From Bacilli bacterium (GTDB lineage Bacteria; Bacillota_I; Bacilli_A; RFN20; UBA1709), in contig JAZRXY010000028.1 of NCBI GenBank assembly GCA_045600465.1, positions 1-53,576 on the forward strand: a stretch of 53,576 bases of DNA. Direction: 5' to 3'. Under the pieces are notes generated by a model. The model saw only the letters and a list, made by a program, of their open reading frames with translations. It did no database searches and was not told the origin of the DNA. The translations under genes and the position numbers were made by a program. This document shows positions 85-16,589 of the stretch, in pieces; positions within the stretch are counted from its first letter, which is position 1, and every line of letters begins with the position of its first letter.

Positions 85-136
85 CTGTGAAATGAAGTGT
101 GTATACCTAATTTCCCATACACATTTAATTTCACAG
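85..136. repeat. 20-bp-arm inverted repeat (hairpin)
   Basis: ctgtgaaatgaagtgtgtat (85-104) vs reverse complement of atacacatttaatttcacag (117-136): 18/20 match, 12-nt loop. Confidence 0.75.
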
Positions 137-322
137 AACCATAAAAAGTTAGGCATTTTTTAATAGTTGAGACAAAAATATTAATAACTTTGGTGAACAT
201 ATATTATTGTTTATTATAGAGACTTAATGTGTAGCTAATAAGATTTAGTGTGTAAAATATTTAAATAATGACTTATTTAGTGATATAATAATATTAAGAA
301 GTATAAAAGGAGATTTTCTTTT

Positions 323-1792
323 ATGGAAAAAATACATTTTAATCTTTGTGATAAAGAGAGTGAAACATTAGAATTCAAAAGGGCTAAAGGAGGTCTTCCT
401 AACTCATTTTTTGAAACTTATAGCAGTTTTTTAAACACTAAAGGTGGATCGATTTATATAGGAGTAAATGAATTACCTGATAAAACTATCGTTCCATCTA
501 TGCTTGCGCTAGAAGATATAGACAAGATAAAAATTGAATTATTTAACAATTTGAATAATCCGCAAAAGGTCAGCGCCAATCTTTTAAATACTAATAATGT
601 TTTAGTAAAAGAATTTAATGGATACCCTGTTTTGGAAATCAAATTAGAACCTGCACCTGTGGAGTATAAGCCGGTATTTATAAATAATAATATCTTAACA
701 GGGACATATAGAAGAAATCACGAAGGGGATTATAGATGCACGCCTTCCGAAATTAAAGCAATGCTTCGTGATGCAGAAAGCAAGTCACAAGACCTATACT
801 GCTTAGAAGAATTGGGACTTGATGTCCTTTCTAAAGATACTATTGCTACATATAAAAACAGATTATTAGCCTTAAAACCAGAACATGTTTTTGCTCAAGG
901 AGATGAGAAAGATTTTTTAGAATATTTAGGTGCTATAAGGGTGGGTAAAGATGGCAACTATCATCCTACAAGAGCTGGGTTACTTATGTTTGGATATTCT
1001 TATAAAATAGTATATGAATTTCCAGAATATTTTGTTGACTATCAAGAACATTATTCAAATGACATAAACCAAAGATGGACAGATCGAATCACTTCGGATA
1101 ACGGAGATTGGAGTGGTAACTTATATGATTTTTACTGCAAGGTATCAAAAAAATTAACATCTGATTTGAAAACACCATTCATAATCAAAGACAATGTTAG
1201 AATCGATGAAACTGAGATGCATAAAGCTGTGAGAGAGGCTTTGTGTAACGCTGTTTCTAACTCTGATTTTTATCAACCACAAGGTTTAATTGTCCATAAG
1301 TATAAGGACAAAATGGAATTTATTAATCCAGGATGTTTGAGAATGTCTGTTGAAAAAATGTTTAAAGGCGGAGATTCAAATGCTAGAAACAAAACGATTC
1401 TTAAGATGTTTAATGTTGTTGGTATTGGAGAAAGAGCTGGAAGTGGATTCCCTCAAATAGTGAGGGCTTGTATTGAATTTGGCTATAATCAACCAGTTAT
1501 ACAAGATACATTTAAACCAGATAGAACGACACTTACTGTTTTTAGTGTTAAGAAAGCTGACACTAAATATGACACTAAACAGCCAGAATTAGACACTAAA
1601 TATAGTGCTAATGAAAATAAGATCATCACTTATCTTTCTAATGTAGATGAAGTAAAAGCTAAAGATATTGCTTATTCAGTTGGTCTAAGTTTGTCAACTG
1701 TAAAGAACACCTTATATAAATTAGTGGAAGAGGGGATTGTATCATCTACTGGCACAATAAAAGACAAAAGATACTTTATCGGCAAAAAGTGA
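323..1792 (+). CDS. AlbA_2 (Schlafen-like) + RecG-C/HATPase_c_4 + C-terminal wHTH protein
   Basis: N-terminal ESETLEFK..ETYSSFLNTKGGSIYIGV; central REALCNAV..NPG..NARN..GIGERAGSG; C-terminal HTH. RBS AAGGAG; extended -10 TGaTATAAT at 281-289. Confidence 0.85.
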   Translation: MEKIHFNLCDKESETLEFKRAKGGLPNSFFETYSSFLNTKGGSIYIGVNELPDKTIVPSMLALEDIDKIKIELFNNLNNPQKVSANLLNTNNVLVKEFNGYPVLEIKLEPAPVEYKPVFINNNILTGTYRRNHEGDYRCTPSEIKAMLRDAESKSQDLYCLEELGLDVLSKDTIATYKNRLLALKPEHVFAQGDEKDFLEYLGAIRVGKDGNYHPTRAGLLMFGYSYKIVYEFPEYFVDYQEHYSNDINQRWTDRITSDNGDWSGNLYDFYCKVSKKLTSDLKTPFIIKDNVRIDETEMHKAVREALCNAVSNSDFYQPQGLIVHKYKDKMEFINPGCLRMSVEKMFKGGDSNARNKTILKMFNVVGIGERAGSGFPQIVRACIEFGYNQPVIQDTFKPDRTTLTVFSVKKADTKYDTKQPELDTKYSANENKIITYLSNVDEVKAKDIAYSVGLSLSTVKNTLYKLVEEGIVSSTGTIKDKRYFIGKK

Positions 1793-1891
1793 TTTTTAAT
1801 TAACGATTGATAGATAAAAGTGTTTTGTAGATATGTTATTGACTGCACATACCATTTTGAGGGTATGGTCTGACGAAGGTCTTACTGCAGT

Positions 1892-2197
1892 CATGTAGAG
1901 ACAGTATGTCTTTTGTCCCAACGAGAAACAAAGGATAAATTAGAGGTTAAGGTAGATAATCCAAGCATAACTAAAGCAGAAGCTAAGCCTACATATGATG
2001 ATGTAAGAGATTATGTTATGGAAATGTATGGTGTAAAGGTATCATCACTTGATATAGCTAATGCTAAGAATTTATATGGCGTTAAGGAAAGAGGAAACTA
2101 TAACATCACAAAGAATAAAGATTATAAGAAGCCTAATCTAACTGAAGAAAAGAAAAAGATGCTAAAAGAAGCATTAAAGCACTTTAAAATGATTTAG
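1892..2197 (+). pseudogene. Orphan C-terminal tail of the type found on RlmD/RumA and rumA-targeting serine recombinases
   Basis: In-frame HVETVCLLSQ upstream of the 1913 ORF, then AKPTYDDVRDYV..GVKVSSL..NYN..ALKHFKMI; no methyltransferase or recombinase body upstream. Confidence 0.75.
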
Positions 2198-2224
2198 GTA
2201 TATGACTCCATCAATAACTGGTGG

Positions 2225-2428
2225 ACACATAATGCTACAATTCCTATGCTTGGAGATGCACAAACAATAGTTTACTGTTGTAATGAAGGCGATAGAATTG
2301 TAATTAAATCCTACAAAATGGAAGATCAGTTGGGTTCAGATAATTCTATACTAGATGTAATTGCGAGTGTTACTGATGGAGGAAAAGCGTCTGTAAAAAA
2401 GAGATTTAAGAAATATAATTATTCATGA
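2225..2428 (+). pseudogene. C-terminal remnant of an ABC/SMC-type ATPase (PHP-ATPase/TrlF/Ppl-like tail)
   Basis: In-frame THNATIPMLGDAQ (H-loop-like) ... DVIASVTDGGKASVKKRFKKYN; no Walker A, 5' end missing. Confidence 0.55.
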
Positions 2429-2456
2429 TAACATGTGTTTTAAGGAGGTGAATTTA

Positions 2457-3842
2457 ATGGCAAATAACTTTTTTGATTTAGTCAGAGATGGTTTTTTTAA
2501 TCCTTTTTCTGGGTCAAACAAAAGATACAATTACGATTTATTACAATTAATAAATGGCAAAATGTCATTAGATAATCTCCAAGTAGTTAAAGAAGATATT
2601 GTTGATTGGATTGTCGATTACGTAGATAATTGTCCAATTGATATGTATAGCGATGATACAAATGAGGAAGAAAAAGATGTTAAGTCATTTGCATACGACA
2701 AAGTAAGATATTTTGTAAAGTGCGGCTGGTTAATAGAAGATTTTGAGGGAATTAAAATCACATATCAATTAGATGAAAATGGTATTAAGATTTTATCAGC
2801 GATGGAAAAAGCGGTTAAAGATGATACAAAGTCTTTGGAGTTTTCTGGATATGTTTACAATATCTACAACAATCTATACAACTATAATTACGATCACGCT
2901 GTTGATATTATTGAACAAGTATATAATGCTTCAAAAGAATTGAATTCAATGCTTAGGGGCTTGAATGTTAACATTAAGAAATTCTTAACTAAACTTATTA
3001 GTGAAAATGAAGCAATGCCTAGAGAAATCTTGCAAACAATATTCTTTGATTATCAAAAGAAAGTTGTACTTAAAGCATTTAAAAACTTTAGAGAAAAAGA
3101 CAACCCATCAAAATATAAACTTTACATAGAGAATCGTATAGATGAGTTATTAACTGAAGAAAAGCTAAACTTGATGATTAGTAATTATATAAAGGTAAAA
3201 TATGATAATTCATCAACAATTGAAAACGAAGACGAAGCAAGAGAATTCTTTGTTACAAGACTAAATTATATCAGCGAACAGTTTGAAGAAATTGAAGAAT
3301 ATATTAGTATGCTTGATGGAAAGAATACTAAATATATTTCAACTGCTCAATCAAGATTAAACTTTTTACTTAACGAAGAAACAGATATTGAAGGAAGAAT
3401 TATTGATTGCTTAAAAGAAATAGGGAAAGTTGATGATGATTTTTTTGGAGGGTCTTATCTAGATATGTATGTTGGTTCAAATATTGATGAGTATTCTTTA
3501 TATAAACCCGTTTCAAGAAAAACAAAGGTAAAACCTGAACCAATTATCGATGAATTTGAAGATGACCAAGAAGAAATAAAAAGACTTGCTGAAAACTTAT
3601 TTAAAGATAATGAGTTTTCTGTATATAAGATTAATGAATTTGTATTATCTCAACTGGGAAGTAATAATCAAATTCATGCAAAGGATATAAAATTAAAAGA
3701 ATTTAATGATTTATTAAAAGTGTTTTTAGTTAAATTATATTCTGCAAATGCTAATGTTGAGTACAGTGTAAAATATCTTGATGATGTATATAAAACATTA
3801 GGATATAAAATGAAAGATTTTATTATAGAAAGGAAGGTGTAA
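2457..3842 (+). CDS. jetA: Wadjet JetA (DUF5716-like kleisin)
   Basis: First gene of a 4-gene operon with SMC and Toprim genes; FFNPFSG N-terminal motif; RBS AAGGAGG before ATG 2457. Confidence 0.8.
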   Translation: MANNFFDLVRDGFFNPFSGSNKRYNYDLLQLINGKMSLDNLQVVKEDIVDWIVDYVDNCPIDMYSDDTNEEEKDVKSFAYDKVRYFVKCGWLIEDFEGIKITYQLDENGIKILSAMEKAVKDDTKSLEFSGYVYNIYNNLYNYNYDHAVDIIEQVYNASKELNSMLRGLNVNIKKFLTKLISENEAMPREILQTIFFDYQKKVVLKAFKNFREKDNPSKYKLYIENRIDELLTEEKLNLMISNYIKVKYDNSSTIENEDEAREFFVTRLNYISEQFEEIEEYISMLDGKNTKYISTAQSRLNFLLNEETDIEGRIIDCLKEIGKVDDDFFGGSYLDMYVGSNIDEYSLYKPVSRKTKVKPEPIIDEFEDDQEEIKRLAENLFKDNEFSVYKINEFVLSQLGSNNQIHAKDIKLKEFNDLLKVFLVKLYSANANVEYSVKYLDDVYKTLGYKMKDFIIERKV

Positions 3843-3845
3843 CAT

Positions 3846-4490
3846 ATGGCAACTATACAAAGAAATTTAGCGTGTGAAGAATATGCTAAGGGTTATATTG
3901 AATTAACTGATACAAGAAAGAACACCTTCTCAAGATTGTGTAATAAACTTTTAAACGATAATTTTATTTATGCATATAGACAAGAAGATAGAAATGATTA
4001 CTATGAAATCTTAAGTATGAAGAAACTTATTGAAAATTATTTTTCTATGATGGATTTCGATTTAGTTCATGTAGATTCATATAAGTTGTTTTATATTCAA
4101 ACTAATGCTGATAGAAATAGAATTAGATTAAAGAAATTAGATACAGTCATTGTGTTAGTATTTAGACTTTTATATCACAAAGGAAGTTTAGATATTAATT
4201 CGAGTTCTGATATTTCAACAACTCTTGGTAAGATGATTACCGAAATAAATCAAACAGGTATATTTAAATCACAACCATCTATGACAGATTACATGGAATC
4301 ATTAAGACTATTGAAGCGATATAAATTAATTGATTATAACTTCAAAGATTTTAAAGAAGATAATGTTATTGTGATTTATCCTACTATTTTATATGTAGCA
4401 AAAGTAGATAGTATTAATATGCTCAATGATAAGTTAAAGACTTATATTGCAGTAAAAGGAGATGATGAAGATGAAGTTGAAGAAGATTAA
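3846..4490 (+). CDS. jetB: Wadjet JetB (DUF4194-like kite subunit)
   Basis: 214 aa with RIRLKKLDTVIVLVFRLLY and IYPTI motifs and an acidic tail; lies between jetA and the SMC gene. Confidence 0.82.
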   Translation: MATIQRNLACEEYAKGYIELTDTRKNTFSRLCNKLLNDNFIYAYRQEDRNDYYEILSMKKLIENYFSMMDFDLVHVDSYKLFYIQTNADRNRIRLKKLDTVIVLVFRLLYHKGSLDINSSSDISTTLGKMITEINQTGIFKSQPSMTDYMESLRLLKRYKLIDYNFKDFKEDNVIVIYPTILYVAKVDSINMLNDKLKTYIAVKGDDEDEVEED

Positions 4491-7400
4491 ACTTATTAAC
4501 TGGCACATCTTTACAAATACTACTATTGAAGTTGATGGGAATATTTTAATCACAGGAGAAAATGCAAGTGGTAAATCAACATTAATGGATGCTATTTATT
4601 ATGTACTTTCAGGCGGAGATCAATACCATTTTAATAAAGCGGCTAATGAAGGTGGTCAAAGAAATCTTGAAACATACATGAGAGGGAAACTTGGATCTGA
4701 GAAGAATCCATATTTAAGACCACAAACTGATGTAGTGAGTTATGTTATATTAGAATATGAAGATGAAAAAAGAAGACATAACATGGTACTTGGGTGTGAG
4801 ATGGAAATTATTGCATCTACTCAACCAAAAAATCATTTCTTTGTAATTAATAATTACAAGATTAAAGATGATGATTTTATCAAAGAAAAGCAAATAGTTG
4901 AATACAAGTCATTTAAATCTAATGCAAAAGCTATGAAATATGATTTTGATGAACTCCCAGATTCAAAGAAAGATAGACGCAGAAGACTTGCTAAGGATAT
5001 CTTTAAATTAGATGACCACAAGAGATATTATGATTTACTTCAAAATGCAATATGTTTTAAACCTATTAGTGAAGTGTCAACTTTTGTTAATGGTTTTCTT
5101 TTAGAAGAAGATAATATCGAATTGGGTAGTTTGAGAGAAGAAATTAGATCATATCAAAATATTCATAAGATGGTTATTAGGGAAAAAGAAAAAATTGAAT
5201 CTTTAAAAGAATTTACACCTAAAGCAGAAAAATATATTTCAAATTTGGATGAACTTAAATATTTTAATGCACTAAGAATAGATTCAAAAATTGAAAAACT
5301 AAATAACCTTATTAATCGTGCCAATATAGAATTAAAACGTTTAGAAGATGAATATAATGGCTTAAAACTTGAAGAGGAATCTCTAAATAAAAATCGTGAT
5401 AGATTAAGAATAGAGATTCACCAACTTGAAAATAATGAAGCTTATAAAGCTTTGTTGAATAAAAAACAAAACCTAGAACAATTAAAGAACGAATTAGGTA
5501 TATTAAATCAAAAATTAAATGAATTTTCTGGGACTTTAGCTTCAGAGCAAAAAATAGTTAGAGCATTAGGATTAAACTTTAGATTCGATGAAGATTATAA
5601 ACAAAAAGATTTTGGCTTATTAAAGGCACATTTTGAAAATTATAATGCACAATTAAAAGAATTAGATGATAAGACACGAGGCCTGATAGCTGAGACAAAA
5701 TATTTGGTTGAGCAAAATAATAAATCAAAGAATAAAAAGGGAAAAGAATTAGACAATTTAAATAAAGGTATTAACAATTATCCTAATGATGTATATAACT
5801 TAATCGAAATAGCAAAAACAGCGATAATGGAGCATAATCCAAAAGATAAAAATCCAGAAGTAAGACCATTATGTGAATATATTGAAATCAATGATGAAAA
5901 GTGGTCAAATGCATTGGAAGGTTATTTGAACACTAGAAGATTTAACTTAATTTTTGATCCAAAGTACTATGATGTTGTAAGTGAAGCATATGATAAATAT
6001 AAAAAAGAACGTAGCGTATATGTTGCGGGTATTGTTAATGTTGCAAATATTCCGAATAATAAAACATTGAAAAACTCTTTGATGACTAAAATAGATGTAA
6101 AAAATAGATTTGCTAAGAAATATGCAAATTATCTTTTAGGTGATTTGATTTGCGTGGATGATGTTAAGGATTTAAAACAGTTTGAATCATCAATAACTCC
6201 TGGAGTAATGGTTTATAAAAACTATGTTCAAAAGGCTACAGACCCAAAAATTTATAAAGTTCCATTCATAGGCCGTGATTCTAGGAAAAAACGAATTGAA
6301 ATTTTAAATAACGAAATTAAACAATTAGATAATAGTAATTTAGAATACAACAAGAAATTATCTGATTATGATAGAATTCTTTTAACTATGAAAAATAGTT
6401 CTATTGATGACTTAATGAAATCTGAAAACTATTGGATTCAAATATCAAACAAAGAAAATTCTATAGAAAGATTAGAAACAGAAATTAAATCTGATGAAAA
6501 GAATAATGGACTTCTAAAAATAACAGGTAGAATTGATGATGCTAAAAAGAATTTAAAAATTATTGAATCTGATATTATGAGAAATGGTTCAAAGCAAAAG
6601 GAAAATAGTACAAGCCAAGGACAATTAAATCAAAAATTATTGGACAATAAAGAGCAATTACAAAACGAGCAAGATAATTATAATGAGATGCGCAAATGCT
6701 TAGTTGATGAAGTATATGAAGCACGTAAAGAAAAATATACTTCAAATGGTTGGTTAAATGATGAACAAATAAACAAAGATTATGAAAGTGTTAGACAATA
6801 TAACAATGCAGTTAATTCATCACTTATTTCTGCAATGCAAAAGTATTCAACTACTTATAAAGCTTCATTAACACCAATTATTGAAAATATCTGTGACTAT
6901 GTTAACGAATATTACGACTTAATTAATCGTGGAGTTGTTCAATATGAAATGGAAGCAAAGGAAGCTTATGAAAGAGCAGAAATTTCATTTAGAGAAGACT
7001 TTATTGCTAAATTAAAGGAAAAAATCGAAAAATCACAAAGAATGTTGGATAAAATTAATAAGAATCTAGCACTACATCCTTTTGGTAACGATGAAGAAAA
7101 ATATAAGTTCTATTATGAGCCAACCAAAGATAGTGAATTCTACAATTACTATAGAATTATTATGTCCGGTAAATTAATGGGATCAAAAAATTTATTTACA
7201 GAGATTCTTGATGAAAAAGATTATTCTTTTATGAAGGATCTATTTGGGAAAATTTCTATGGAAACTGATTCGGCGCAAGCTGCAGCAGAAGTTGAAAGAT
7301 ATTTAGATTATCGTAATTATATGAATTATGATATTAAGATTACTAATAAGTATGGTGATGAATCATATTTCTCTAAGATCAATAGAGAAAAGAGTGGTGG

Positions 7401-7692
7401 AGAAACACAAACTCCATTCTATATTGTTATGGCTTCTTGTTTCGATGAATTGATGAATAAAGATTCTAATAAAGTTGAAAGTACTTGCCAAGTAGTCTTT
7501 GATGAAGCTTTCAATAACATGGACGAAAGCAGAATCAAATCATTAATGGAATTCTATAAGAAATTGAATATTCAAATTGTCATTATTGTTCCTTCAAATA
7601 GAATAAGTGCTATTTCGCCATATATGGATACATTAGTTGGTATAACAAAAGTAAATAATCATCCTTATTTAAACGTGGTGAGTAAGCAATGA
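4462..7692 (+). CDS. jetC: Wadjet JetC SMC-like ATPase
   Basis: LINWH, Walker A GENASGKST, FNKAA, long coiled coils, signature SGGE, Walker B VVFDEAF; start may be 4465 or 4471. Confidence 0.9.
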   Translation: MMKMKLKKIKLINWHIFTNTTIEVDGNILITGENASGKSTLMDAIYYVLSGGDQYHFNKAANEGGQRNLETYMRGKLGSEKNPYLRPQTDVVSYVILEYEDEKRRHNMVLGCEMEIIASTQPKNHFFVINNYKIKDDDFIKEKQIVEYKSFKSNAKAMKYDFDELPDSKKDRRRRLAKDIFKLDDHKRYYDLLQNAICFKPISEVSTFVNGFLLEEDNIELGSLREEIRSYQNIHKMVIREKEKIESLKEFTPKAEKYISNLDELKYFNALRIDSKIEKLNNLINRANIELKRLEDEYNGLKLEEESLNKNRDRLRIEIHQLENNEAYKALLNKKQNLEQLKNELGILNQKLNEFSGTLASEQKIVRALGLNFRFDEDYKQKDFGLLKAHFENYNAQLKELDDKTRGLIAETKYLVEQNNKSKNKKGKELDNLNKGINNYPNDVYNLIEIAKTAIMEHNPKDKNPEVRPLCEYIEINDEKWSNALEGYLNTRRFNLIFDPKYYDVVSEAYDKYKKERSVYVAGIVNVANIPNNKTLKNSLMTKIDVKNRFAKKYANYLLGDLICVDDVKDLKQFESSITPGVMVYKNYVQKATDPKIYKVPFIGRDSRKKRIEILNNEIKQLDNSNLEYNKKLSDYDRILLTMKNSSIDDLMKSENYWIQISNKENSIERLETEIKSDEKNNGLLKITGRIDDAKKNLKIIESDIMRNGSKQKENSTSQGQLNQKLLDNKEQLQNEQDNYNEMRKCLVDEVYEARKEKYTSNGWLNDEQINKDYESVRQYNNAVNSSLISAMQKYSTTYKASLTPIIENICDYVNEYYDLINRGVVQYEMEAKEAYERAEISFREDFIAKLKEKIEKSQRMLDKINKNLALHPFGNDEEKYKFYYEPTKDSEFYNYYRIIMSGKLMGSKNLFTEILDEKDYSFMKDLFGKISMETDSAQAAAEVERYLDYRNYMNYDIKITNKYGDESYFSKINREKSGGETQTPFYIVMASCFDELMNKDSNKVESTCQVVFDEAFNNMDESRIKSLMEFYKKLNIQIVIIVPSNRISAISPYMDTLVGITKVNNHPYLNVVSKQ

Positions 7693-8876
7693 CAAAGAAT
7701 TTTGAAAAAAATATTTTAAATAAATTATTAGATAAATATGAAAAATCAAAGCTATCTAAAGGTGGAACAGCAATTAATAGAAGTATAAAACTTACTACAA
7801 AGGATGATGTATTAAGCTCTTATACAAGTTTTGATTCTTATAAATATTCTGATGACAATGATGCTGTAATAAAGAAACTGGAATCTCAAGGTTTTATTAA
7901 AGCTGAATTTAATAACGACACATTTAAATCGCTCACATTGAATTTGGATAACGTTGATGATGTTTATGATTATTTAAACAGAAGCAAACCTTTAGATGAA
8001 CTTGCTAAGATTAGAATGGTATTATCTAAATACTATTTTGATAATTTTATGGGATTATTCTTAGACTATGTTGAGACTTATTTGAACGAAAAATATGACT
8101 ATCCTAAGATTTATTTTAATAATGCAGATCAACTTGATTTATTATTAAATATATTTGATAAATTATTAGGATTAACTGAAGAAATTAAGAAAAGAGATTT
8201 TTCTGTTAGGTATTTAGGTGATTCTAAAATATTTGAATCAGTACAGGGAAAAGTAGTTAAGATTTTAAAAGATTTTGATGGTAACGATTATGATTCTGAT
8301 GAGGATGTTTTAGCTTCATATAATATTGTCAAAAACTCGTCATATGCTATGGTTAAGAATAATCTGGTTTTGAAGATCAATAATTCGATTATTGATTTAA
8401 ATGATTTAGGATATGAATTATCTCTTTCAGATGAAATGATTAAGAATGTAATCTTATTAGATTCACAAGTTTCAAAAGTAATCACTGTAGAGAACTTGAC
8501 AACTTTTTATTCATTAAATGATAGTGATACGGTTATTATTTATCTTGCCGGATTTCATAATCACACAAAGCAAAGTTTATTATTAAAGATATATGAAAAA
8601 TATCCTAATGCAGAATATTTACATTTCAGCGATATTGATGCTGGAGGATTCTTGATTTTTAATAATTTAATAGAGAAAACAGGCATCCCATTCAAACCGT
8701 TTAGAATGAATGTTGAAGAATTGAAATCTAACTTAAGCAACTTAAAGCATCTAACTGACAACGATGTTAAAAGGCTTAATAAAATGATGAGTGATGCTAG
8801 GTTTAATATATTCCATGAAGTTATTTCTTATATGCTTGAAAATGATGTTAAGTTAGAACAAGAACTATTGGATTAA
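7689..8876 (+). CDS. jetD: Wadjet JetD Toprim nuclease (DUF3322 + DUF2220)
   Basis: GDSKIFE, VITVENLTTF, HFSDIDAGG (DxD), C-terminal LEQE; ATGA overlap with jetC. Confidence 0.88.
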   Translation: MTKNFEKNILNKLLDKYEKSKLSKGGTAINRSIKLTTKDDVLSSYTSFDSYKYSDDNDAVIKKLESQGFIKAEFNNDTFKSLTLNLDNVDDVYDYLNRSKPLDELAKIRMVLSKYYFDNFMGLFLDYVETYLNEKYDYPKIYFNNADQLDLLLNIFDKLLGLTEEIKKRDFSVRYLGDSKIFESVQGKVVKILKDFDGNDYDSDEDVLASYNIVKNSSYAMVKNNLVLKINNSIIDLNDLGYELSLSDEMIKNVILLDSQVSKVITVENLTTFYSLNDSDTVIIYLAGFHNHTKQSLLLKIYEKYPNAEYLHFSDIDAGGFLIFNNLIEKTGIPFKPFRMNVEELKSNLSNLKHLTDNDVKRLNKMMSDARFNIFHEVISYMLENDVKLEQELLD

Positions 8877-9003
8877 ATATTCCAGTTGTTTTTTTCTAGA
8901 TACATACCCATAAGTATGAGGAACTAGATGGAAGGATAGTTTGATGATATGGTCGTTTCTTAAATACAACCATAGTTTTATATGTTTGTAGAGAAGATAC
9001 AAT

Positions 9004-9031
9004 TCATGTAGAGACTGTTGTGTTGCTATCG
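9004..9031 (+). mobile_element. Second rlmD-3'-like att motif (HVETVVLLS)
   Basis: TCATGTAGAGAC identical to 1891-1902; reads HVETVVLLSLKTIENF*; preceded in frame by a degenerate ..EELDGRIV**.. segment resembling a serine-recombinase tail. Confidence 0.65.
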
Positions 9032-9076
9032 CTAAAAACAATAGAAAATTTTTAATTAGCAAATCTAGATAGAAAG

Positions 9077-9225
9077 TGCACTAGTCAATAAAAAGAAGAC
9101 ATTATTTTGAAAATTTTAATTTATATTCGTTTGGAGTCAGGTAATTCAAGGAATAAGCAGGTCTTTCGTTGTTAAAGAAATCGACATATTTTTCAATTGT
9201 TTCATATACATTGAGTACTATCTTA
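9077..9225 (-). mobile_element. IS3-family remnant: transposase C-terminus plus right inverted repeat
   Basis: Minus strand reads ..ETIEKYVDFFNNERPAYSLNYLTPNEYKLKFSK* (stop 9102-9104), followed directly by TGTCTTCTTTTTATTGACTAGTGCA (9101-9077), an IS3-type IRR ending in CA. Confidence 0.8.
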
Positions 9226-9254
9226 ATTAATAGTGCTCTTAATAAAATCAGTAA

Positions 9255-9306
9255 TTGCTTTAAATGTATAATAGTGATATAATAAAGTTGAAAAAAGATA
9301 TTTCAA
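9255..9306 (+). promoter_or_regulatory. sigma70 promoter with downstream inverted-repeat operator for the AbiE operon
   Basis: TTGCTT(9255)-17-TATAAT(9278); TTGAAA-N7-TTTCAA at 9288-9306. Confidence 0.6.
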
Positions 9307-9324
9307 GATTGTGAGGCGATATGA

Positions 9325-9942
9325 ATGTTGATGGATTACATAAATAAGAATTATGATAAAGCCGAACCAATATTCATGTATGAACTACCATGTACATCAC
9401 AGGATGCATTAAGGCAAGAAATGAAAAAACTTACTGATGAAGGTAAGCTTATACGTCTTTATAATGGCGTTTATTATAAACCATATAAGACTATATTTGG
9501 AACAGATGGCAAGATGTCTATTAACAAGTTCATCGAAAAGAGATACTTGTATGAAGCTGATGAAAGTATTGGCTTTGTATCTGGTATATCAATGTATAAC
9601 AAGTATGGTTTTACTACGCAAATACCATCAATTATTGAAGTAGTAACTAATACCGCTACAACAAAGCAAAGAAAAGTTGAAATTGATGGATATGGCATCA
9701 TTGTATATAAACCTGCAATTAATATAACAAAAGAAAATATCAACGAAATTGAATTCTTAACTATGATGACTGATATTGATAAGTATAGTGAACTAAGCCT
9801 AGATGAATTAAAATCCAAACTTAAACAATATGTCGAGAAGAAAAAAATAAAATTCAATTTAATTAAGGAATATTTACCTTTATTTCCAGATAAGGTCTAT
9901 AAGAACATTTATAATGGAGGGCTGATGAATGAGCTAGTATAA
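9325..9942 (+). CDS. Type IV TA antitoxin, AbiEi/DUF6088-like
   Basis: N-terminal wHTH (LRQEMKKL..GKLIRLYNGVYY), GFTTQIP motif; overlaps the start of the AbiEii-like gene. Confidence 0.8.
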   Translation: MLMDYINKNYDKAEPIFMYELPCTSQDALRQEMKKLTDEGKLIRLYNGVYYKPYKTIFGTDGKMSINKFIEKRYLYEADESIGFVSGISMYNKYGFTTQIPSIIEVVTNTATTKQRKVEIDGYGIIVYKPAINITKENINEIEFLTMMTDIDKYSELSLDELKSKLKQYVEKKKIKFNLIKEYLPLFPDKVYKNIYNGGLMNELV

Positions 9943-10290
9943 AAATTATAAGAGTGAGTGGAAAGAAATAATTGATACTGTTTCATTAGAATTAAAACGT
10001 AATCCTTTAATGGTTGAAAAAGATACAATCAATGTTTTTATATGAATTATCAAAAAGTGAGTTACCTTTTGTGTTTAAAGGTGGAACATCACTATCTAAG
10101 GCATACGATTTAATTGATAGGTTTTCTGAAGATATAGATTTATCTATGCCTAGAAGCATCACTGATAAGGAAAAGAAAAAATCAAAGGAAACAATTATAG
10201 CAATTGCGACTGAATTAGGATTAGTTTTAAAAAATCCTGATGATGTCTTATCTAGACATGATTACAATAAGTACTTATTTGAATCAATAA
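9929..10290 (+). pseudogene. AbiEii nucleotidyltransferase toxin, disrupted
   Basis: RBS GGAGG then ATG 9929 with TAG at codon 3; MVEKDT then a frameshift near 10025; FKGGTSLSKAY..RFSEDIDL motifs; truncated near 10290. Confidence 0.85.
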
Positions 10291-10314
10291 CTTCGCAGTC
10301 TTTTGTATTAATAC

Positions 10315-10443
10315 GGTTCTCTCAAATGAAAGTTGGTAGCTATTTTTAAAAAGCATCAAACAAAAGTTGGTGGCAATTGCTAAAACGATAAAATAAAAGT
10401 TGGATTCTTCACCACATAAGTGATGGCGTGTCCAACTTTTTGT
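10315..10443. repeat. AAAGTTGG-box mini-array, copy 1 (3 units + inverted unit)
   Basis: 10322-10443 matches 52110-52231 with 3 mismatches in 122 bp. Confidence 0.92.
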
Positions 10444-10552
10444 CCGCACTCCCTATGTCAGGAAATAATTAACCAGTAGTATCATAATAATCACAAGGAG
10501 GATTATATTAAACTACCAGAACTTGATGTATTTGGCAGAATAGGTTTGTAGG

Positions 10553-10581
10553 AAAATGGCGATTAAAAATGTTGGTTTTCT
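10553..10581. repeat. Partial copy of the TGTAGAA..TTCTACA junction repeat
   Basis: aaaatggcgattaaaaatgttggttttct, 28/29 identical to 14881-14909. Confidence 0.75.
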
Positions 10582-10628
10582 GAGGATATAGAAGCTTCGC
10601 TTAGGAAATTAATCGCAAGATAACTAGC

Positions 10629-10734
10629 TCGATAAAATTCAAAGACTTGTAAAAATTTCGGTTGCAGTGTTGATTGGCGGCATTCTTTGTGATATAATAC
10701 AGTCGATAAAACTCAAAGACTTGCAAAAAAATCG
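10629..10734 (+). promoter_or_regulatory. sigma70 promoter bracketed by 32-bp direct repeats
   Basis: Repeats 10629-10660 and 10703-10734 (28/32); TTGATT(10670)-17-TATAAT(10693) between them. Confidence 0.85.
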
Positions 10735-10736
10735 AG

Positions 10737-12071
10737 GTGACATTGATGAGATTTGATCGAAATGTATATTTAAAACGATTAATAAATAAAAGGGATAATT
10801 CTTTAATTAAGGTAATTACTGGCGCTAGAAGAAGTGGAAAATCTTATTTAATGAATACTATATTTTATGAATATTTGTTAGAAGAAGGAATTAATAAAAA
10901 TAATATTATAAGATTTGCTTTTGATAATGATGAGCATATTGATTTACTCGATAATTATTATCCTAATGAAGATACAAAAATATATGCTAAAGCTGGCATT
11001 TATACTATTAATTCTAAAAAATTTAGAGCATATATAAAGGATGTTACTAATGATAAAGATAAATTTATATTGCTTTTAGATGAAATACAAATTTTAGATT
11101 CTTTTGTAGGTACTTTAAATGGATTAATGAACCACGAAAATTTTGATATATATGTTACAGGTAGTAATTCTCAATTGCTATCTAGCGAAATAGAAACAAA
11201 ATTTAGAGGAAGAAAATCGTCAATACACGTACTACCGTTATCATTTTCGGAATTGATGACTGGCTTTTCTATGACAACAAATGAAGCATGGAATAAATAT
11301 ATTGTTACAGGGGGTATTCCAATTGTATATAAACAAGCCGAAGATGAAAGAATGGAATATCTTAAAAATTTATGTGAAGAAACGTACTTGAAAGATATAA
11401 TTGGTAGAAAAGGTGTAAAGGATGTTGATACATTATCTGAACTATTTGGAGTACTAGCATCATGTGTTGGAACTGGGGTTAGTCCATCAAGTCTTGAAAA
11501 AACATTTAAATCTGAAAAAAAAGTAATTGTGACAGACGATACAATTAATAATTACATAAATCATTTTCAAGATTCATTCGTAGTATCTAAAGCATTAAAA
11601 TACAATATAAAGGGTAAAAAGTATATCAATTCACCATATAAAGTATATTTTGAAGATATTGGGGTAAGAAATGCAAGAACAGATTTTAGACAAATAGAAG
11701 AACCCCATTTAATGGAAAATATTATATACAATGAATTAAGATATCGAGGATATAATGTATGTGTTGGTGAGGTTGACATTAACGAAATGACAGATAGAAT
11801 CGATTGTAATGGCAAAAAAATATATAAGAAAAAAGCATTAGAGGTCGATTTTATTGCAACTAAGGGCAATCAAAAATATTACATACAGTCATGCTTAAAC
11901 TTAGATAATGAAACATCTTTAAGAGAAAAAAGAAGCCTTTATTATATAGATGATTCATTTAAAAAAATAATAATCACTAAGGATGGATTAGACATAAGAC
12001 GAGATGAAAATGGATTTACAATAATTGATATTTTTCAGTTCTTATTAGATATTAATTCATTAGATGCATAG
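10737..12071 (+). CDS. AAA_14 + DUF4143 ATPase
   Basis: ITGARRSGKS, LLLDEIQ, YVTGSNS, GGIP, YFEDIGVRN, MENIIYNEL, EVDFI; start GTG 10737 or ATG 10746. Confidence 0.9.
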   Translation: MTLMRFDRNVYLKRLINKRDNSLIKVITGARRSGKSYLMNTIFYEYLLEEGINKNNIIRFAFDNDEHIDLLDNYYPNEDTKIYAKAGIYTINSKKFRAYIKDVTNDKDKFILLLDEIQILDSFVGTLNGLMNHENFDIYVTGSNSQLLSSEIETKFRGRKSSIHVLPLSFSELMTGFSMTTNEAWNKYIVTGGIPIVYKQAEDERMEYLKNLCEETYLKDIIGRKGVKDVDTLSELFGVLASCVGTGVSPSSLEKTFKSEKKVIVTDDTINNYINHFQDSFVVSKALKYNIKGKKYINSPYKVYFEDIGVRNARTDFRQIEEPHLMENIIYNELRYRGYNVCVGEVDINEMTDRIDCNGKKIYKKKALEVDFIATKGNQKYYIQSCLNLDNETSLREKRSLYYIDDSFKKIIITKDGLDIRRDENGFTIIDIFQFLLDINSLDA

Positions 12072-12111
12072 TCTGATCATAAATTATGATTTAATGAAAT
12101 AATTAAATACA

Positions 12112-12366
12112 TATTGAATTTTGTTATAATCAACCAATTATACAAGATGCATTTAAATCAGATAGAACAACGTTTACTGTTTTTAGTGTTAAGAAGGATG
12201 ACACTAAACAACCAAAATTAGACACTAGAAGAGGGAATCGTATCATCTGTTGATACAATAAAAGACAAAAGATATTTTGTCAGTGAAAATAATTTTTAAT
12301 TTCTGATTGATATACGAAAGTTTATTGTAGATGTAATGTAGTATTGACTGCTCATACTGTTTTGAG
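12112..12366 (+). pseudogene. Degenerate, internally deleted copy of the 3' end and downstream flank of gene 323-1792
   Basis: Aligns to 1471-1861, lacking one 12-bp unit and the equivalent of 1599-1726. Confidence 0.85.
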
Positions 12367-12410
12367 TGTCTACAAAAAATAAACAAAATAGGAAAGAAAA
12401 GGAGCAAAAT

Positions 12411-13136
12411 ATGAAAGAAGAATGTTTAATATGCAAATCTCCTCTTGAATATCTAAATGAAGATATTGAAATGGAGTGTGCTATTTGTCACAAAAAAGAA
12501 TTAAGTAAAACAAGATGCATCAACGGCCATTATGTATGTAATGATTGTCACATAAAAGGCATTGATAGCATTTTTGGTGTTTGTCTTAATTCTTCTAGCA
12601 AAAATCCAATAAAGATACTTAATGAAATGATGCAGTTACCATTTTGTCATATGCATGGTCCTGAACATCATATTATGGTTGGTTCGGCTTTACTAACAGC
12701 ATATAAAAATGCAGGTGGTAATATTGATCTTACTAAAGCATTAGTAGAAATGAAAAATCGCGGAGGTAGCGTCCCTGGAGGTGCTTGTGGTTTTTGGGGA
12801 GCATGTGGGGCAGGAATTAGTTCAGGGATGTTTATTTCTATAATTTCTTCATCAACACCTCTTGAAGGAAAACCATTTGGTCTTTCTAATCTTATGACTT
12901 CAAAATCGCTTGAAGCTATAGGTTTAATTGGTGGCCCTCGTTGTTGCAAAAGGGATTCTTACCTCTCCATTCTTTCTGCCATTGATTTTGTTAAAGACCA
13001 TTTTGGTGTTCAAATGGAAAAATCAGAAATTGTGTGTGATTTTTCTTTTAAAAACAATCAGTGTATTGGTAGCAAATGCCCCTTTTCAAAAACTAATCAT
13101 TTAAAAAATGTAGAATTCTATAAAAATGATGACTAA
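12411..13136 (+). CDS. DUF5714-family Cys-rich protein with N-terminal zinc-ribbon
   Basis: CLIC..CAIC..C..GHYVCNDCH; MHGPEHH; PGGACGFWGACGA; GGPRCCKRD; RBS AAGGAG before ATG 12411. Confidence 0.8.
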   Translation: MKEECLICKSPLEYLNEDIEMECAICHKKELSKTRCINGHYVCNDCHIKGIDSIFGVCLNSSSKNPIKILNEMMQLPFCHMHGPEHHIMVGSALLTAYKNAGGNIDLTKALVEMKNRGGSVPGGACGFWGACGAGISSGMFISIISSSTPLEGKPFGLSNLMTSKSLEAIGLIGGPRCCKRDSYLSILSAIDFVKDHFGVQMEKSEIVCDFSFKNNQCIGSKCPFSKTNHLKNVEFYKNDD

Positions 13137-13167
13137 AAATGTTTTTTTCTACAATTTATTCTTTTCT
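13109..13167. repeat. ~60-bp junction repeat, copy A
   Basis: About 56/60 identical to 14867-14926; internal TGTAGAA/TTCTACA inverted ends. Confidence 0.88.
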
Positions 13168-13381
13168 CATTGTTATTCCACCTCTATTTAATTATAGTGG
13201 AATAATCATAAATCCGGCATTTATGACATTTTCAGTTTAGCATTTACAGACAAGATTGTTGTAAATGTACAATAATATACAATTTTAATAAATAAAATTT
13301 ATTGGAAACTACAACAAAATGATTAGATTAATTACAAACAAATAATAGATATTTATTTAGTAAGAATCAATTATAAACAAT

Positions 13382-13446
13382 AATCGTTCGAACGAAACGC
13401 GAACGAAATTAAAATCGTTCACAAATGCGTTCGTATATGATATAAT
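13382..13446 (+). promoter_or_regulatory. Promoter with clustered CGAACGA/TCGTTCG motifs
   Basis: Palindrome TCGTTCGAACGA 13384-13395; CGAACGAAA at 13389 and 13400; AATCGTTC at 13382 and 13413; TGaTATAAT at 13438-13446. Confidence 0.65.
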
Positions 13447-13467
13447 TTTAATGCGAGGTGAATAAAA

Positions 13468-14718
13468 ATGAAGGAATCAAGAAATGTAGAGTTTAAAGGA
13501 AACATTACAAATTCATTTCTTAAAACAGTCTCTGCTTATAGTAATTATGATGGAGGAACTATTGTTTTTGGAATAGATGATAATGGTAATATAACTGGTA
13601 TAGATGAATCGTTGGAGGATGTTTGCTTGGATTTAGAAAATAGAATAAACGATACCATTAAACCGAACCCAAATTATGAATTTAAAATTGACAAAAAAAA
13701 TAAGACAATATCTTTAATTGTATATCCTGGTAAAAATAAGCCATTTTTCTATAAGAATAAGGCATACAAGAGAAATGATACCTCTACTATAGAAGTAGAT
13801 TCAATAGAATTAAAAAGATTAGTTTTGGAGTCGTTAAATATTAATTTTGAAGATCAACCTTCTAGTAATCAAAATTTGTTTTTTCATGAATTAGAAAATA
13901 AACTAAAAGAGAAATTAAAAATATCTAAATTTGATACTGACACACTCAAAACGTTGAAACTAATATCGACTGATGGAAAATATAATATTGCTGCAGAATT
14001 ACTCTCTGATAATAATTCTTTTCCAGGTATTGATATTGTTAAATTTGGAGAAACTATTAATATTTTTAAAGAAAGAATAACAATATCAAATTGTTCTATT
14101 ATAAAAATGTATTACGATGCCTTAGAGAGTTTTGAAAGATATTATACATATGAAGAAATTGATGGAGCTTTAAGAATTAAAAAAGAAAACATACCTCAAG
14201 AAGCTTTTAGAGAAGCGATCTTAAACGCATTAGTTCATAGGGTGTGGGATGTAAATGCACATACAAAAGTTTCAATGTGGGATGATTGCATTGAAATATC
14301 TTCAGTTGGAGGATTGCCAAAAGGTATGAATGAAGAAATGTATCTAAACGGAAATATATCTATTGCAAGAAATCCTATAATAGCTAATGTATTTTATAGA
14401 CTTAATTTAATTGAACAATTCGGAACAGGCATAAGTAGAATAGAAGAATGTTATTCTGATAATGCGGAAAAACCTGTTTTCAAAATCACTGATAGTAGTA
14501 TTTATATAAAACTTCCCAAAATTAACACAAATATCTCGTTAACTCATGACGAGGATGTTATTTATAAAAATATAAGCAATAGAAAAAAATCAAGTTCAGA
14601 AATTTTAATAGACTCACCATTTGGAAAAACAAAGACTGTTTCAATTTTGAATCGATTAATTGAAAAGGGACTAGTGAAGACTACGGGTGAAGGTAAAGCC
14701 AAGAAATACTTTATGTAA
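13468..14718 (+). CDS. AlbA_2 + RecG-C/HATPase_c_4 + HTH protein
   Basis: ESRNVEFK, VSAYSNYDGGTIVFGI, REAILNALVHR, RNPIIA, IEQFGTGI, C-terminal HTH. Confidence 0.88.
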   Translation: MKESRNVEFKGNITNSFLKTVSAYSNYDGGTIVFGIDDNGNITGIDESLEDVCLDLENRINDTIKPNPNYEFKIDKKNKTISLIVYPGKNKPFFYKNKAYKRNDTSTIEVDSIELKRLVLESLNINFEDQPSSNQNLFFHELENKLKEKLKISKFDTDTLKTLKLISTDGKYNIAAELLSDNNSFPGIDIVKFGETINIFKERITISNCSIIKMYYDALESFERYYTYEEIDGALRIKKENIPQEAFREAILNALVHRVWDVNAHTKVSMWDDCIEISSVGGLPKGMNEEMYLNGNISIARNPIIANVFYRLNLIEQFGTGISRIEECYSDNAEKPVFKITDSSIYIKLPKINTNISLTHDEDVIYKNISNRKKSSSEILIDSPFGKTKTVSILNRLIEKGLVKTTGEGKAKKYFM

Positions 14719-14736
14719 GGTGGAGCACTTTAAAAG

Positions 14737-14798
14737 ATGTTGAAACGTATATCGAAACAGTTGTTTTGCTTGAGAAAAAAACTCAAGAAAATATTTAA
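14737..14798 (+). mobile_element. Third, degenerate rlmD-3'-like att motif (DVETYIETVVLLEK)
   Basis: gaaacagttgttttgct reads ETVVLL, immediately after the 14718 stop; followed by an imperfect hairpin and T-tract at 14814-14856. Confidence 0.5.
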
Positions 14799-14855
14799 AA
14801 TAGAGTAAATTTGAGGGTTGTGACTCTAGAAGTAGGAGGCATGATCCTTTTATTT

Positions 14856-14926
14856 TTGTAGAAAAGTGTAGAATTCTATAAAAATGACGATTAAAAATGT
14901 TGGTTTTCTACAATTTATTCTTTTCT
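14856..14926. repeat. ~60-bp junction repeat, copy B
   Basis: Direct repeat of 13109-13167; TTGTAGAAAA(14856)..TTTTCTACAA(14904-14913) 10-bp inverted ends. Confidence 0.88.
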
Positions 14927-15042
14927 TTTGATAAGTTTCTCTTGTTTAGGATAAAGTGTTAGAAAACAAGATAAGAGAAATGAAACTTTAGCGCAGCTTT
15001 GCACCAGTACTGCCACTATTTTTTCTAGGTTGTGCGATATCT

Positions 15043-16320: not shown

Positions 16321-16333
16321 ATCAACACCTCAC

Positions 16334-16447
16334 TTCTATAAGTTGTAACAAAAGTGATAACACTTCTAGATGTAATTATATATTTGAATACAAAGAAAGT
16401 CAATTTTCATTTCCATAAGTAGCAACAAAAGTGATAACAGTTCTAGA
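16334..16447 (-). promoter_or_regulatory. sigma70 promoter bracketed by 37-bp direct repeats
   Basis: Repeats 16334-16370 and 16411-16447 (33/37); minus-strand TTGACT(16403-16398)-17-TATAAT(16380-16375) between them. Confidence 0.85.
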
Positions 16448-16550
16448 AATGCGTTATATGATATTAGTGTTCAACTTTTGAGGTTAACCACATAGAGTTT
16501 ATATATTAATTTGTTTATACTATTTTCAAAGAATCATTAGATGATTTAAG

Positions 16551-16589
16551 TGTTATAATAATAGATAGATAGATATATAAATATCTATC
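16551..16589 (+). promoter_or_regulatory. Extended -10 promoter plus palindromic operator for the hydrolase cluster
   Basis: TGTTATAAT 16551-16559; GATAGATAT-ataa-ATATCTATC 16568-16589. Confidence 0.6.

Follow-up and report, generated by a model that had tools for sequence, protein, structure and literature searches.

Orphan copies of the rlmD 3' end bracket a Wadjet operon and suggest a decayed CIME-like defence island in a Bacilli bacterium

Introduction

ICEs and IMEs that target rumA (rlmD) with a single large serine integrase have been described in streptococci and, as CTn5, in Clostridioides difficile (Ambroset et al., 2016, PMC4701971; Guedon et al., 2017, PMC5704250). Reciprocal exchange of the gene's tail is described for the streptococcal elements (PMC4701971), and the direct repeats reported for rumA/rlmD elements are short, at 2-21 bp (PMC4701971, PMC5704250). 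A three-step model of integration, decay to a CIME and accretion is already in print; CIMEs of the ICESt1/ICESt3 type, as described there, keep the flanking att sites and have lost the integration and transfer genes, and they can stand in tandem with other elements at one end of a target gene, the composite being inheritable or transferable as a block (PMC5704250). In Erysipelothrix rhusiopathiae, from a neighbouring Bacilli lineage, rlmD is also an attachment locus for mobile DNA, since a complete 53-kb prophage with a recombinase is integrated beside it (PMC12785378).

Here, we analysed a stretch of 53,576 nucleotides from a Bacilli bacterium (contig JAZRXY010000028.1; hereafter the window), in which three copies of an rlmD 3' end, W1, W2 and W3, lie among defence genes. 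The window shares with the rumA/rlmD ICEs and IMEs a target in the 3' part of this gene, an exchanged tail, a displaced tail at the far end and a short direct repeat (12 nt for W1/W2). Unlike those elements, the window has no integrase, relaxase, conjugation genes or attached rlmD body, its cargo is anti-phage defence, and the hosts appear to be reduced-genome Bacilli. The CIME pattern recurs in W1 and W2, which are kept around jetABCD while integration and transfer genes are missing. The CIMEs described so far carry tyrosine integrases and their mobilisation has been demonstrated (PMC5704250), whereas the window has putative sites of the serine-recombinase type in advanced decay. Where E. rhusiopathiae carries an entire prophage, the window holds a recombinase-less array.

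An integron array consists of promoter-poor gene blocks that all point the same way, and a recombination site recurs behind every block. The gene blocks of the window share these features. In contrast to an integron, neither IntI nor attI is present, the sites mimic the end of a housekeeping gene and are not folded attC hairpins, the blocks range from one gene to a four-gene operon, and on their left the blocks are not flush with the site before them.

Results

Three orphan copies of an rlmD 3' end were found in the window, at 1892, 9005 and 14748, all on the + strand and at the places where the original prediction had put them:

1892-2197, + strand: W1, HVETVCLLS followed by 92 codons, an open long tail of 101 codons
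9005-9055, + strand: W2, HVETVVLLSLKTIENF followed by a stop, a short tail
14736-14820 (peptide 14748-14798), + strand: W3, YIETVVLLEKKTQENI followed by a stop, a host-type rlmD 3' end in decayed form

As had been noticed, W1 and W2 have a sequence in common, the 12-nt core TCATGTAGAGAC, and bracket jetABCD (2433-8876). Both start at the H codon, and no likeness to rlmD was found upstream of this codon in either. The W3 peptide begins 30 nt past the stop of the gene at 13468-14718, which bears out its description as lying right after a gene stop, and two of its motif residues are changed (Y, I). A degenerate DNA pattern of the motif matched twice in the window versus 0.01 matches expected, and 0/100 shuffles contained at least two. 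When the whole 927,091-base genome was scanned for the motif in six peptide frames, as the original prediction had proposed, four matches were obtained: W1, W2, W3 and the end of the single rlmD gene. W3 is the scar most similar to this host rlmD end (C10:498-544), with 83% identity over 47 nt (E 1.7e-5) and, aligned past the stop, 56/73 identical positions. Given two matches against 0.01 expected and the alignment of W3 to the genome's own rlmD end, W1-W3 are not chance matches; the probability of three random points landing inside the span of W1-W3 is ~6e-4.

W1, W2 and W3 each have a different type of tail. That of W1 matches rlmD frames of 538-564 aa at their C-termini in six other genomes of the order, and PF05958 was present in 30/30 of its matches in a search of longer proteins. 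In genome G079, a long tail is fused to rlmD beside a large serine recombinase (LSR) element, and the W1 tail is 49% identical to it. The LSR of the same genome ends in an rlmD-derived tail, to which the W2 tail is similar (ETVVLLSLK in W2 versus ETIVLLCLK; 29/48 nt). W1-W3 derive from rlmD 3' ends, in agreement with the reading of the motif as a displaced RlmD/RumA end.

The genes and other features around the three copies are as follows:

1-140, no strand: R, a dispersed repeat of 140 nt with which the contig opens and which blocks the view left of the island; also identical over 136 nt to the end of C7, with flanks that diverge past the repeat
323-1792, + strand: AlbA_2 (Schlafen-like)/HATPase_c_4/wHTH gene, the last before W1 (Pfam PF04326 1.2e-10, PF13749 2.4e-13)
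2246-2428, + strand: 60-codon ORF that overlaps the left boundary of the Wadjet module, matched by no family in Pfam, NCBIfam or PADLOC
2413-9021, + strand: shared Wadjet module, ~93% DNA identity with loci L051 and L052 (blastn), right edge inside W2
2433-3842, 3846-4490, 4462-7692 and 7689-8876, + strand: jetA, jetB, jetC and jetD of a type I Wadjet system (Pfam, PADLOC)
9105-9203, - strand: relic of a DDE (rve) transposase gene, from its 3' end (Pfam rve_2 5.4e-6, 26.9 bits, cut-off 22)
9325-9942 and 10014-10349, + strand: AbiEi antitoxin and truncated AbiEii toxin (PADLOC 2.3e-71 and 1.7e-23; Pfam)
10322-12071, + strand: AAA_14/DUF4143 ATPase gene (10737-12071; PADLOC candidate PDC-S01; Pfam) with upstream repeats
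12112-12369, + strand: decayed duplicate of window 1471-1864 (blastn 82% and 79%)
12366-13136, + strand: DUF5714 protein (Pfam 1.6e-69)
13468-14718, + strand: second AlbA_2/HATPase_c_4 gene, directly followed by W3 (Pfam 8.2e-20, 5.7e-18)
15043-16320, - strand: second AAA_14/DUF4143 (PDC-S01) gene (Pfam, PADLOC)

The jet set is complete and in type I Wadjet order (Pfam JetA 6.7e-78, DUF4194, SbcC/AAA_29 and JetD_C; PADLOC JetA1-JetD1), and only 128 nt separate jetD from W2. To the right of W2, signs of decay and of dispersed repeats are frequent. The region around the transposase relic (9077-9213) is 99% identical to C21:38180-38316, the AbiEii toxin of 111 aa covers only positions 2-88 of a 238-position profile, and a 122-nt array of ~33-nt direct repeats upstream of the ATPase gene is 97-98% identical to C12:4624-4745, C27:1682-1803 and C28:52110-52231. 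The duplicate at 12112-12369 consists of the end of the AlbA_2 gene and 72 nt of spacer, and it ends where the motif would come next. The gene at 15043-16320 is the last of defence type, with esterase and amidohydrolase genes beyond it. The G+C content is 26-28% over 3-9 kb versus ~30-35% over most of 17-53 kb.

The window contains neither a recombinase nor an rlmD body, as had been stated. No relaxase, oriT or conjugation genes were found when its 45 ORFs were compared with Pfam, and there is no recombinase or transfer gene between W1 and W2. In the 88%-complete assembly, the serine recombinase domains PF00239 and PF07508 gave 0 matches, and tblastn with the G079 LSR returned no recombinase remnant (best E 2.6). 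Four tyrosine recombinases (PF00589) are encoded on C12, C19, C22 and C6, none of them on the window's contig. In addition, the ~90-nt conserved left arm of the arrays of other families was undetectable in this genome by nhmmer. The single rlmD gene, a 460-aa frame ending in HVETVVLLEKKPQK, lies on contig C10.

The original prediction held that the rlmD end is a target of serine recombinases, and in the order it is a live integration target. In G079, the rlmD body is fused to the long tail and followed by ~12.5 kb of cargo that includes a MobL relaxase; beyond the cargo lies a 564-aa LSR that ends in frame in FETIVLLCLKDAKK, an rlmD-type tail. This layout corresponds to the reciprocal tail exchange of the streptococcal rumA elements (PMC4701971), except that the exchanged tail stays in frame, whereas a frame shift is reported for the streptococcal exchange (PMC4701971, PMC5704250). 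G079 is the only fully intact LSR element with both ends that was seen. An LSR lies just downstream of rlmD in G123, an rlmD-like tail adjoins the LSR gene at 5/30 LSR loci, and LSR homologues occur in 99/401 genomes of the order. These data show that the rlmD end is targeted by LSR elements in the order.

The exact motif pattern was present in 90/401 genomes versus 5 with a reversed control, and in eight of the 401, two or three copies share a contig and a strand and fall within 12 kb. Among eight orphan tails examined elsewhere, the likeness to rlmD begins exactly at the H codon in five, and the DNA upstream is unrelated. Some same-strand scars flank single defence genes. The arrays rlmD-[AAA_14]-scar-AlbA_2 (G244), scar-[AAA_14]-scar-AAA_14 (G148), AlbA_2-scar-AlbA_2-scar-AlbA_2 (G304) and rlmD-6 kb-scar-2.9 kb-scar (G110) contain the same gene families as the window. 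Furthermore, recombinase-less blocks between rlmD-end repeats recur as single genes in G244 and G148 and as a 145-aa-ORF insert in L035.

Related loci were expected to differ at breakpoints that coincide with the motifs, which held for L051 on one side of the Wadjet module only. Positions 9243-15850 of L051 correspond to window 2413-9021 at 93% identity, and the two diverge within W2, their tails parting inside a core of at most 17 nt. One breakpoint thus demonstrably lies inside W2, and W1, W2 and the L051 breakpoint are all junctions at the conserved core of the rlmD 3' part with short direct repeats. In contrast, the left edge of the module (2413) lies 520 nt to the right of W1, and the similarity of L052 (85-6607, equal to window 2413-8934) ends 71 nt before W2, without the motif. 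The L065 breakpoints also miss the motifs, 1803 by 89 nt and 9252 by about 200-250 nt, in both cases on the outer side. L065, 92% identical to window 9252-9952, joins an AlbA_2 block (to 1803) and an AbiEi block (from 9252) by a different, motif-free filler of 1.6 kb, so module exchange here can do without motifs. Orthologues of the AlbA_2 gene at 323-1792 (79% aa) occur without motifs in L063 and L064, within similar AlbA_2/AAA_14/AbiE islands.

Overall, one of four informative breakpoints lies at a motif. The original prediction was to fall if neither rlmD nor a recombinase were linked to the locus and the breakpoints missed the motifs; the outcome is mixed and does not refute it, since one breakpoint coincides with a motif and linkage to rlmD is hidden from view by the contig end at the window start. 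The other flanking genes of L051 reach at best 49-53% aa identity here, with no close counterpart in this genome, while the module itself is 93% shared; the Wadjet module has therefore moved between lineages. Upstream sequence of 1.2 kb or more is available for seven JetA-related loci (the window, L051 and L053-L057), and four of them have rlmD or a copy of its end at most 5.2 kb upstream of jetA.

Discussion

We consider it somewhat probable that W1-W3 are att-type junction scars of elements integrating into the HVETV-coding core near the rlmD (rumA) 3' end. The comparison of sequences also tips modestly towards the island being a decayed CIME-like accretion array; an integron-style system is not demonstrated. 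The mechanism is already known, and the unusual part is the decayed form. In relatives, the enzyme is an LSR whose integration exchanges the tail of rlmD: the gene receives an element-supplied tail, and the host tail that is displaced ends up on the opposite side of the element, where in some cases it is joined to the recombinase gene. Positions 1892-9055 may then represent one such element minus its recombinase, with the W1 long tail as the element-supplied arm, the small ORF, jetABCD, 128 nt, and the W2 short tail as an attR-like junction at the right end. Decayed cargo would flank it on both sides, namely the AlbA_2 gene before W1 and, before W3, the block of transposase relic, truncated AbiE pair, PDC-S01 ATPase, AlbA_2 relic, DUF5714 and second AlbA_2 gene. 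The array may have been assembled at an rlmD-type site, here or in an earlier host, and a transposon, dispersed repeats and deletions would later have eroded it; we infer this order of events, the loss of the recombinase and the place of assembly. Because the assembly contains no recombinase, the island now looks inert. Accretion with att scars, the core of the original prediction, thus gains from the L051 breakpoint within W2 and the same-strand arrays in relatives, and loses from the missing recombinase in the 88%-complete assembly and the location of the only rlmD on C10.

The original prediction in its strict form, in which elements were added one after another on the spot, at an rlmD still attached just left of window position 1, is unlikely. 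In its favour, the scars are all on one strand, and W3, the most host-like, is farthest from the presumed rlmD, a position that serial insertion predicts. The only rlmD points outward 0.5 kb from a contig end, and this end shares repeat R with the window start in the same orientation (100% identity to C10:51-190, 330 nt downstream of rlmD). In relatives, rlmD also lies at contig ends (G008:C47, G007:C19) or is directly followed by scars (G110, G244, G036, G048). However, C10 continues through R into 50 nt unlike the window flank. None of the contig ends shares an overlap of at least 15 nt with the window start, the host-type end of rlmD on C10 is complete and gives way to other dispersed repeats, and the orthologue of the first island gene adjoins purA in L064.

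A decayed accretion array could also be an eroded example of something broader, which we regard as doubtful: rlmD-end mimics may be the portable site of a cassette system run by trans-supplied serine recombinases in the reduced-genome Bacilli of the order, with single defence genes (AAA_14/DUF4143, AlbA_2) and operons (Wadjet) each carrying one site and stacked downstream of rlmD. If true, this would be a functional analogue of the integron made from the end of a housekeeping gene and a serine, not a tyrosine, recombinase.

It is improbable that such a system is live in the window, its scars still serving a recombinase that is encoded in the 12% missing from the assembly or brought in by a visiting element, and the Wadjet and other blocks being excised, reordered and exchanged as in integron or CIME mobilisation. 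In favour of it, L051 keeps the junction of jetD, 128 nt and core at 93% as far as the crossover and has another tail past it, recombinase-less blocks flanked by rlmD-end repeats recur (G244, G148, L035), and LSRs are common in the order. Against it stand the absence of a recombinase from the 88%-complete assembly, the decay of W3 (two altered core residues and indels), the lost motif of a fourth site at 12369 and the remaining breakpoints off the motifs. DNA folds of both strands revealed no attC-like structure at the three sites, which fold no better than shuffled controls (z -0.43 to -1.47; 18 to 65/200 shuffles fold at least as well); with no IntI either, the defining features of an integron-style array are missing. 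Serine integrases are also not known to join attL-type to attR-type sites unless a directionality factor is present.

Least probable is an origin without site-specific recombination, as debris of duplicated or decayed rlmD paralogues or as tracts of homologous recombination or gene conversion: a second rlmD-family gene and a 68-aa fragment in G005, a 182-aa rlmD fragment in G008, a 167-nt direct repeat of the rlmD end in L055 (91.6% identity, long enough for homologous recombination) and the ~130 nt right of the core shared between repeats in arrays of other families would suit it, but in W1 and W2 the likeness to rlmD does not reach upstream of the H codon, the tails of L051 and W2 part within a core of at most 17 nt, as fits a precise crossover rather than a long tract of homology, W1-W3 differ from one another in tail type, and LSR genes in relatives are fused to such tails.

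The island and its three orphan rlmD ends

The assembly comprises 927 kb (0.93 Mb) in 35 contigs and is 88% complete; the window covers the first 53.6 kb of contig C28. The defence island occupies the first 16.3 kb of the window, and the contig end forms its left edge. The features are as follows.

Features of the island (minus-strand features are marked)
323-1792: AlbA_2/HATPase_c_4/HTH gene
1892-2197: W1, orphan rlmD tail
2246-2428: 60-codon ORF
2433-8876: jetABCD, type I Wadjet (PADLOC)
9005-9055: W2, orphan rlmD end
9105-9203, minus strand: rve-transposase relic
9325-9942: AbiEi
10014-10349: AbiEii, truncated
10737-12071: AAA_14/DUF4143 ATPase (PADLOC PDC-S01)
12112-12369: decayed duplicate of window 1471-1864
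12366-13136: DUF5714 protein
13468-14718: second AlbA_2 gene
14748-14798: W3, orphan rlmD end
15043-16320, minus strand: second PDC-S01 gene

Metabolic and housekeeping genes fill the window beyond 16.6 kb, with no recombinase or transfer gene among them. The AbiEii toxin gene ends at 111 codons, where dispersed repeats (10278-10443) start, while the AbiEi antitoxin gene is intact. The DUF5714 protein matched NCBIfam MbdU, a metal-binding double selenoprotein, over 245 residues (E 2.7e-40), its score of 138.7 bits lying far below the 600-bit cut-off. No relatives of the second AlbA_2 gene were found in the searched genome contigs, and known RNA families gave 0 matches in window 1-17000.

All three copies of the HVETV motif that the original prediction placed in the window were recovered by a DNA pattern and a six-frame genome scan. 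The degenerate DNA pattern matched at 1892 and 9005 (0.01 expected). W3 is two residues off the motif and matches the genome's own rlmD end at 83% over 47 nt; with the alignment carried on beyond the stop, 56 of 73 positions agree. Across the whole genome, the six-frame scan returned only W1-W3 and the end of the single rlmD (rumA), on contig C10. W1 is an open tail of 101 codons and reaches well beyond the nine-residue motif. It matched sequences in 17 of 401 genomes of the order, including this genome and a weak match inside a 1043-aa frame in G267; in 6 genomes the match was to the C-terminus of 538-564-aa rlmD frames, and in 9 further genomes to short orphan frames. Among longer proteins, all 30 matches to the W1 tail carried the rlmD methyltransferase domain; these homologues were all RlmD, and no serine recombinase with such a long tail was among them. 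The likeness to rlmD begins exactly at the H codon in five of the eight orphan tails inspected, and likewise in W1 and W2. Several genomes have orphans in which the long tail is still an open frame; for the window copy (1892-2197, ~100 residues), Pfam gave just a weak match, to ribosomal protein L23 (E 0.0028).

Elements targeting rlmD in the same order

Streptococcal elements that target rumA are described as carrying a single serine integrase and exchanging the 3' parts of rumA and the integrase gene (PMC4701971). We found an element of the same layout within the window's order, in genome G079. Here, the rlmD body is fused to a W1-type long tail and followed by ~12.5 kb of cargo, including a MobL relaxase, and then by a 564-aa large serine recombinase (LSR) whose in-frame end, FETIVLLCLKDAKK, is the displaced short rlmD tail. 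In G123, the LSR gene lies directly downstream of rlmD, and an orphan tail 11.6 kb further on precedes an HTH gene and the beginning of jetA; locus L053, apparently on the same contig, has the full Wadjet operon at that position. An rlmD-like tail also adjoined the LSR gene in 5 of 30 LSR loci examined. The view that the rumA 3' end is a serine-recombinase target extends to this order.

Segment 1892-9055 of the window has the G079 layout minus the recombinase: long tail, cargo and short tail. By analogy with that layout, one idea is that the long tail was once part of an excised recombinase. LSR homologues occur in 99 of the 401 genomes and in 3 of the 11 in the window's own family, with 0 in this genome. 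In agreement with the original prediction, the window has neither a recombinase nor an rlmD body: no serine recombinase was found in the 88% complete assembly, tblastn with the G079 LSR against the genome for a relic gave a best E of 2.6, and the only rlmD is that on C10.

The array might instead have been stacked in place at an rlmD gene just left of window position 1, to which it would still be attached. The rlmD on C10 has a complete end followed by dispersed repeats, among them R, a repeat of 140 nt with which the window begins too. However, C10 runs on from R into a flank different from that of the window, and no contig end in the assembly overlaps the window start, so that we consider continued attachment unlikely. 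In G002, MgsA and rlmD are convergent and 56 kb apart, with an identity of just 42% (aa) that is too low to inform synteny.

Movement of the Wadjet operon as a block

The related locus L051 shares window 2413-9021 at 93% DNA identity; to the rest of its genes, nothing in this genome corresponds closely. The homology continues past jetD through 128 nt and ends in the W2 core, beyond which the tails differ, a pattern characteristic of a precise crossover within at most 17 nt of core. The type I Wadjet operon moved between lineages as a block that ends on the right in a recombination scar at the rlmD core.

The expectation that breakpoints in relatives would coincide with the motifs was borne out at the W2 core in L051 but not elsewhere. 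The left edge of the shared module, at 2413, is 520 nt away from W1, on its right, and ~45 nt ahead of jetA, and the flanks beyond it differ again in L051 and in L052. Homology to L052, a locus without the motif, stops at 8934. In L065, counterparts of window 1259-1803 (93.6%) and 9252-9952 (92%) surround an unrelated 1.6-kb filler, which encodes a metallophosphatase and has no motif; content is thus swapped at this site with end points that lie to the left of W1 by 89 nt and to the right of W2 by ~200-250 nt.

Upstream sequence of 1.2 kb or more was available for seven JetA-related loci, and four of these (the window, L051, L053 and L055) have rlmD or a copy of its end no more than 5.2 kb upstream. 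Neither was found within that distance in L054, L056 or L057; the L056 island sits downstream of rpsI. The motif was absent from all five JetD-related loci in metagenome contigs (closest identity 68%) and from the 380 nt after jetD in G023, on a contig of just 7.2 kb. L051:4110 and L051:4291 are orphan rlmD ends spaced by 180 nt without an intervening gene; the second has an internal stop. In L055, the rlmD end is repeated directly over 167 nt (8039-8204 and 8309-8475, 91.6% identity); the two copies enclose just 104 nt with inverted repeats, an arrangement that resembles a minimal insert or what an excised element leaves behind.

Similar arrays in related genomes

The exact pattern occurred in 90 of the 401 genomes, compared to 5 for the reversed control. 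Sixteen genomes had two or three copies, and in eight of them the copies lay on the same contig and strand within 12 kb; arrays were inspected in seven of these eight.

Arrays around rlmD ends in other genomes
G244: rlmD-[AAA_14]-scar-AlbA_2
G148: scar-[AAA_14]-scar-AAA_14
G304: AlbA_2-scar-AlbA_2-scar-AlbA_2
G110: rlmD-6 kb-scar-2.9 kb-scar-AAA_14
G036, G048: rlmD, then a 1.5-kb or 2.4-kb insert, then scar
G123: rlmD-LSR element, orphan tail 11.6 kb on

The gene families in these arrays are those of the window, in which the unit of an AlbA_2 gene followed by a scar occurs twice. Nine orphans in arrays of other families (loci L097-L103, from G110, G123, G036, G148, G304 and G244) share a conserved left arm of ~90 nt and, over ~100 nt, the rlmD tail with its terminator. 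On visual inspection, degenerate core copies are present in the arm, as if it held multiple binding sites or stacked scars. A by-eye resemblance of W1 and W2 to this arm was dropped when an nhmmer profile of the arm matched nothing in the genome; a profile of arm plus motif matched solely the motif part of W2 (E 0.02). Comparable AlbA_2/AAA_14/AbiE islands without motifs are present in L063 and in L064, where the island adjoins purA. A literature search on rlmD, defence and hotspots found no description of such arrays.

Origin of the island

Taken together, we lean towards reading the motifs as att-type scars of rlmD-targeting elements and the island as a decayed accretion of recombinase-less blocks. 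This corresponds to the published model of cis-mobilisable elements (CIMEs; PMC5704250). As it stands, the window exemplifies in decayed form a mechanism already in print, in which elements target rumA, CIMEs form and blocks accrete. Later events have also shaped the island, as seen in the relic of a transposase, the dispersed repeats, the truncated toxin gene and the loss of a fourth site. Of the integron-style accretion array originally proposed, the accretion of blocks with scars stands in decayed form, but the integron likeness does not: there is no IntI, and the motif sites showed no attC-like folding beyond shuffled controls. An integron-like array that is still active is improbable.

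The island illustrates the gathering of anti-phage systems by a very small genome (0.93 Mb), and in related genomes such rlmD-end scars also flank single defence-type genes. Should the sites still be usable in trans, they would offer a simple, portable means of moving defence genes and a practical marker for defence islands in uncultured Mollicutes-like Bacilli.

Dispersed repeats and DUF4143 genes

Copies of R lie at window 1-140, C10:51-190 and the end of C7, and diverged ones at C26:2200-2278 and the end of C24. In R, a ~22-bp stem is followed by a T run and then by a minus-strand ORF of 17 codons. Both stem arms are changed in a compensatory manner in the C26 copy, and Rfam gave no match in the window. 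Several contig ends carry a related repeat, which also occurs on C10, between R and rlmD. A second short dispersed repeat (~55-90 nt, direct orientation) lies between island gene blocks at 10527-10582, 13104-13167 and 14862-14952, with inverted copies at C12:4794-4891 and near the ends of C35 and C17.

Of the 20 DUF4143 (AAA_14/PDC-S01) matches in the 0.93-Mb genome, 19 fall in open frames 403-472 aa long, and several are at contig ends; those in the window are at 10737-12071, 15043-16320 and, as a fragment, near 52318-52832. Arrays of ~22-35-nt direct repeats, iteron- or operator-like in appearance, lie upstream of the AAA_14/DUF4143 genes examined (window 10322-10443, L055:8480-8560 and L055:16840-17090), and the window array recurs at 97-98% identity at three further loci in the genome.
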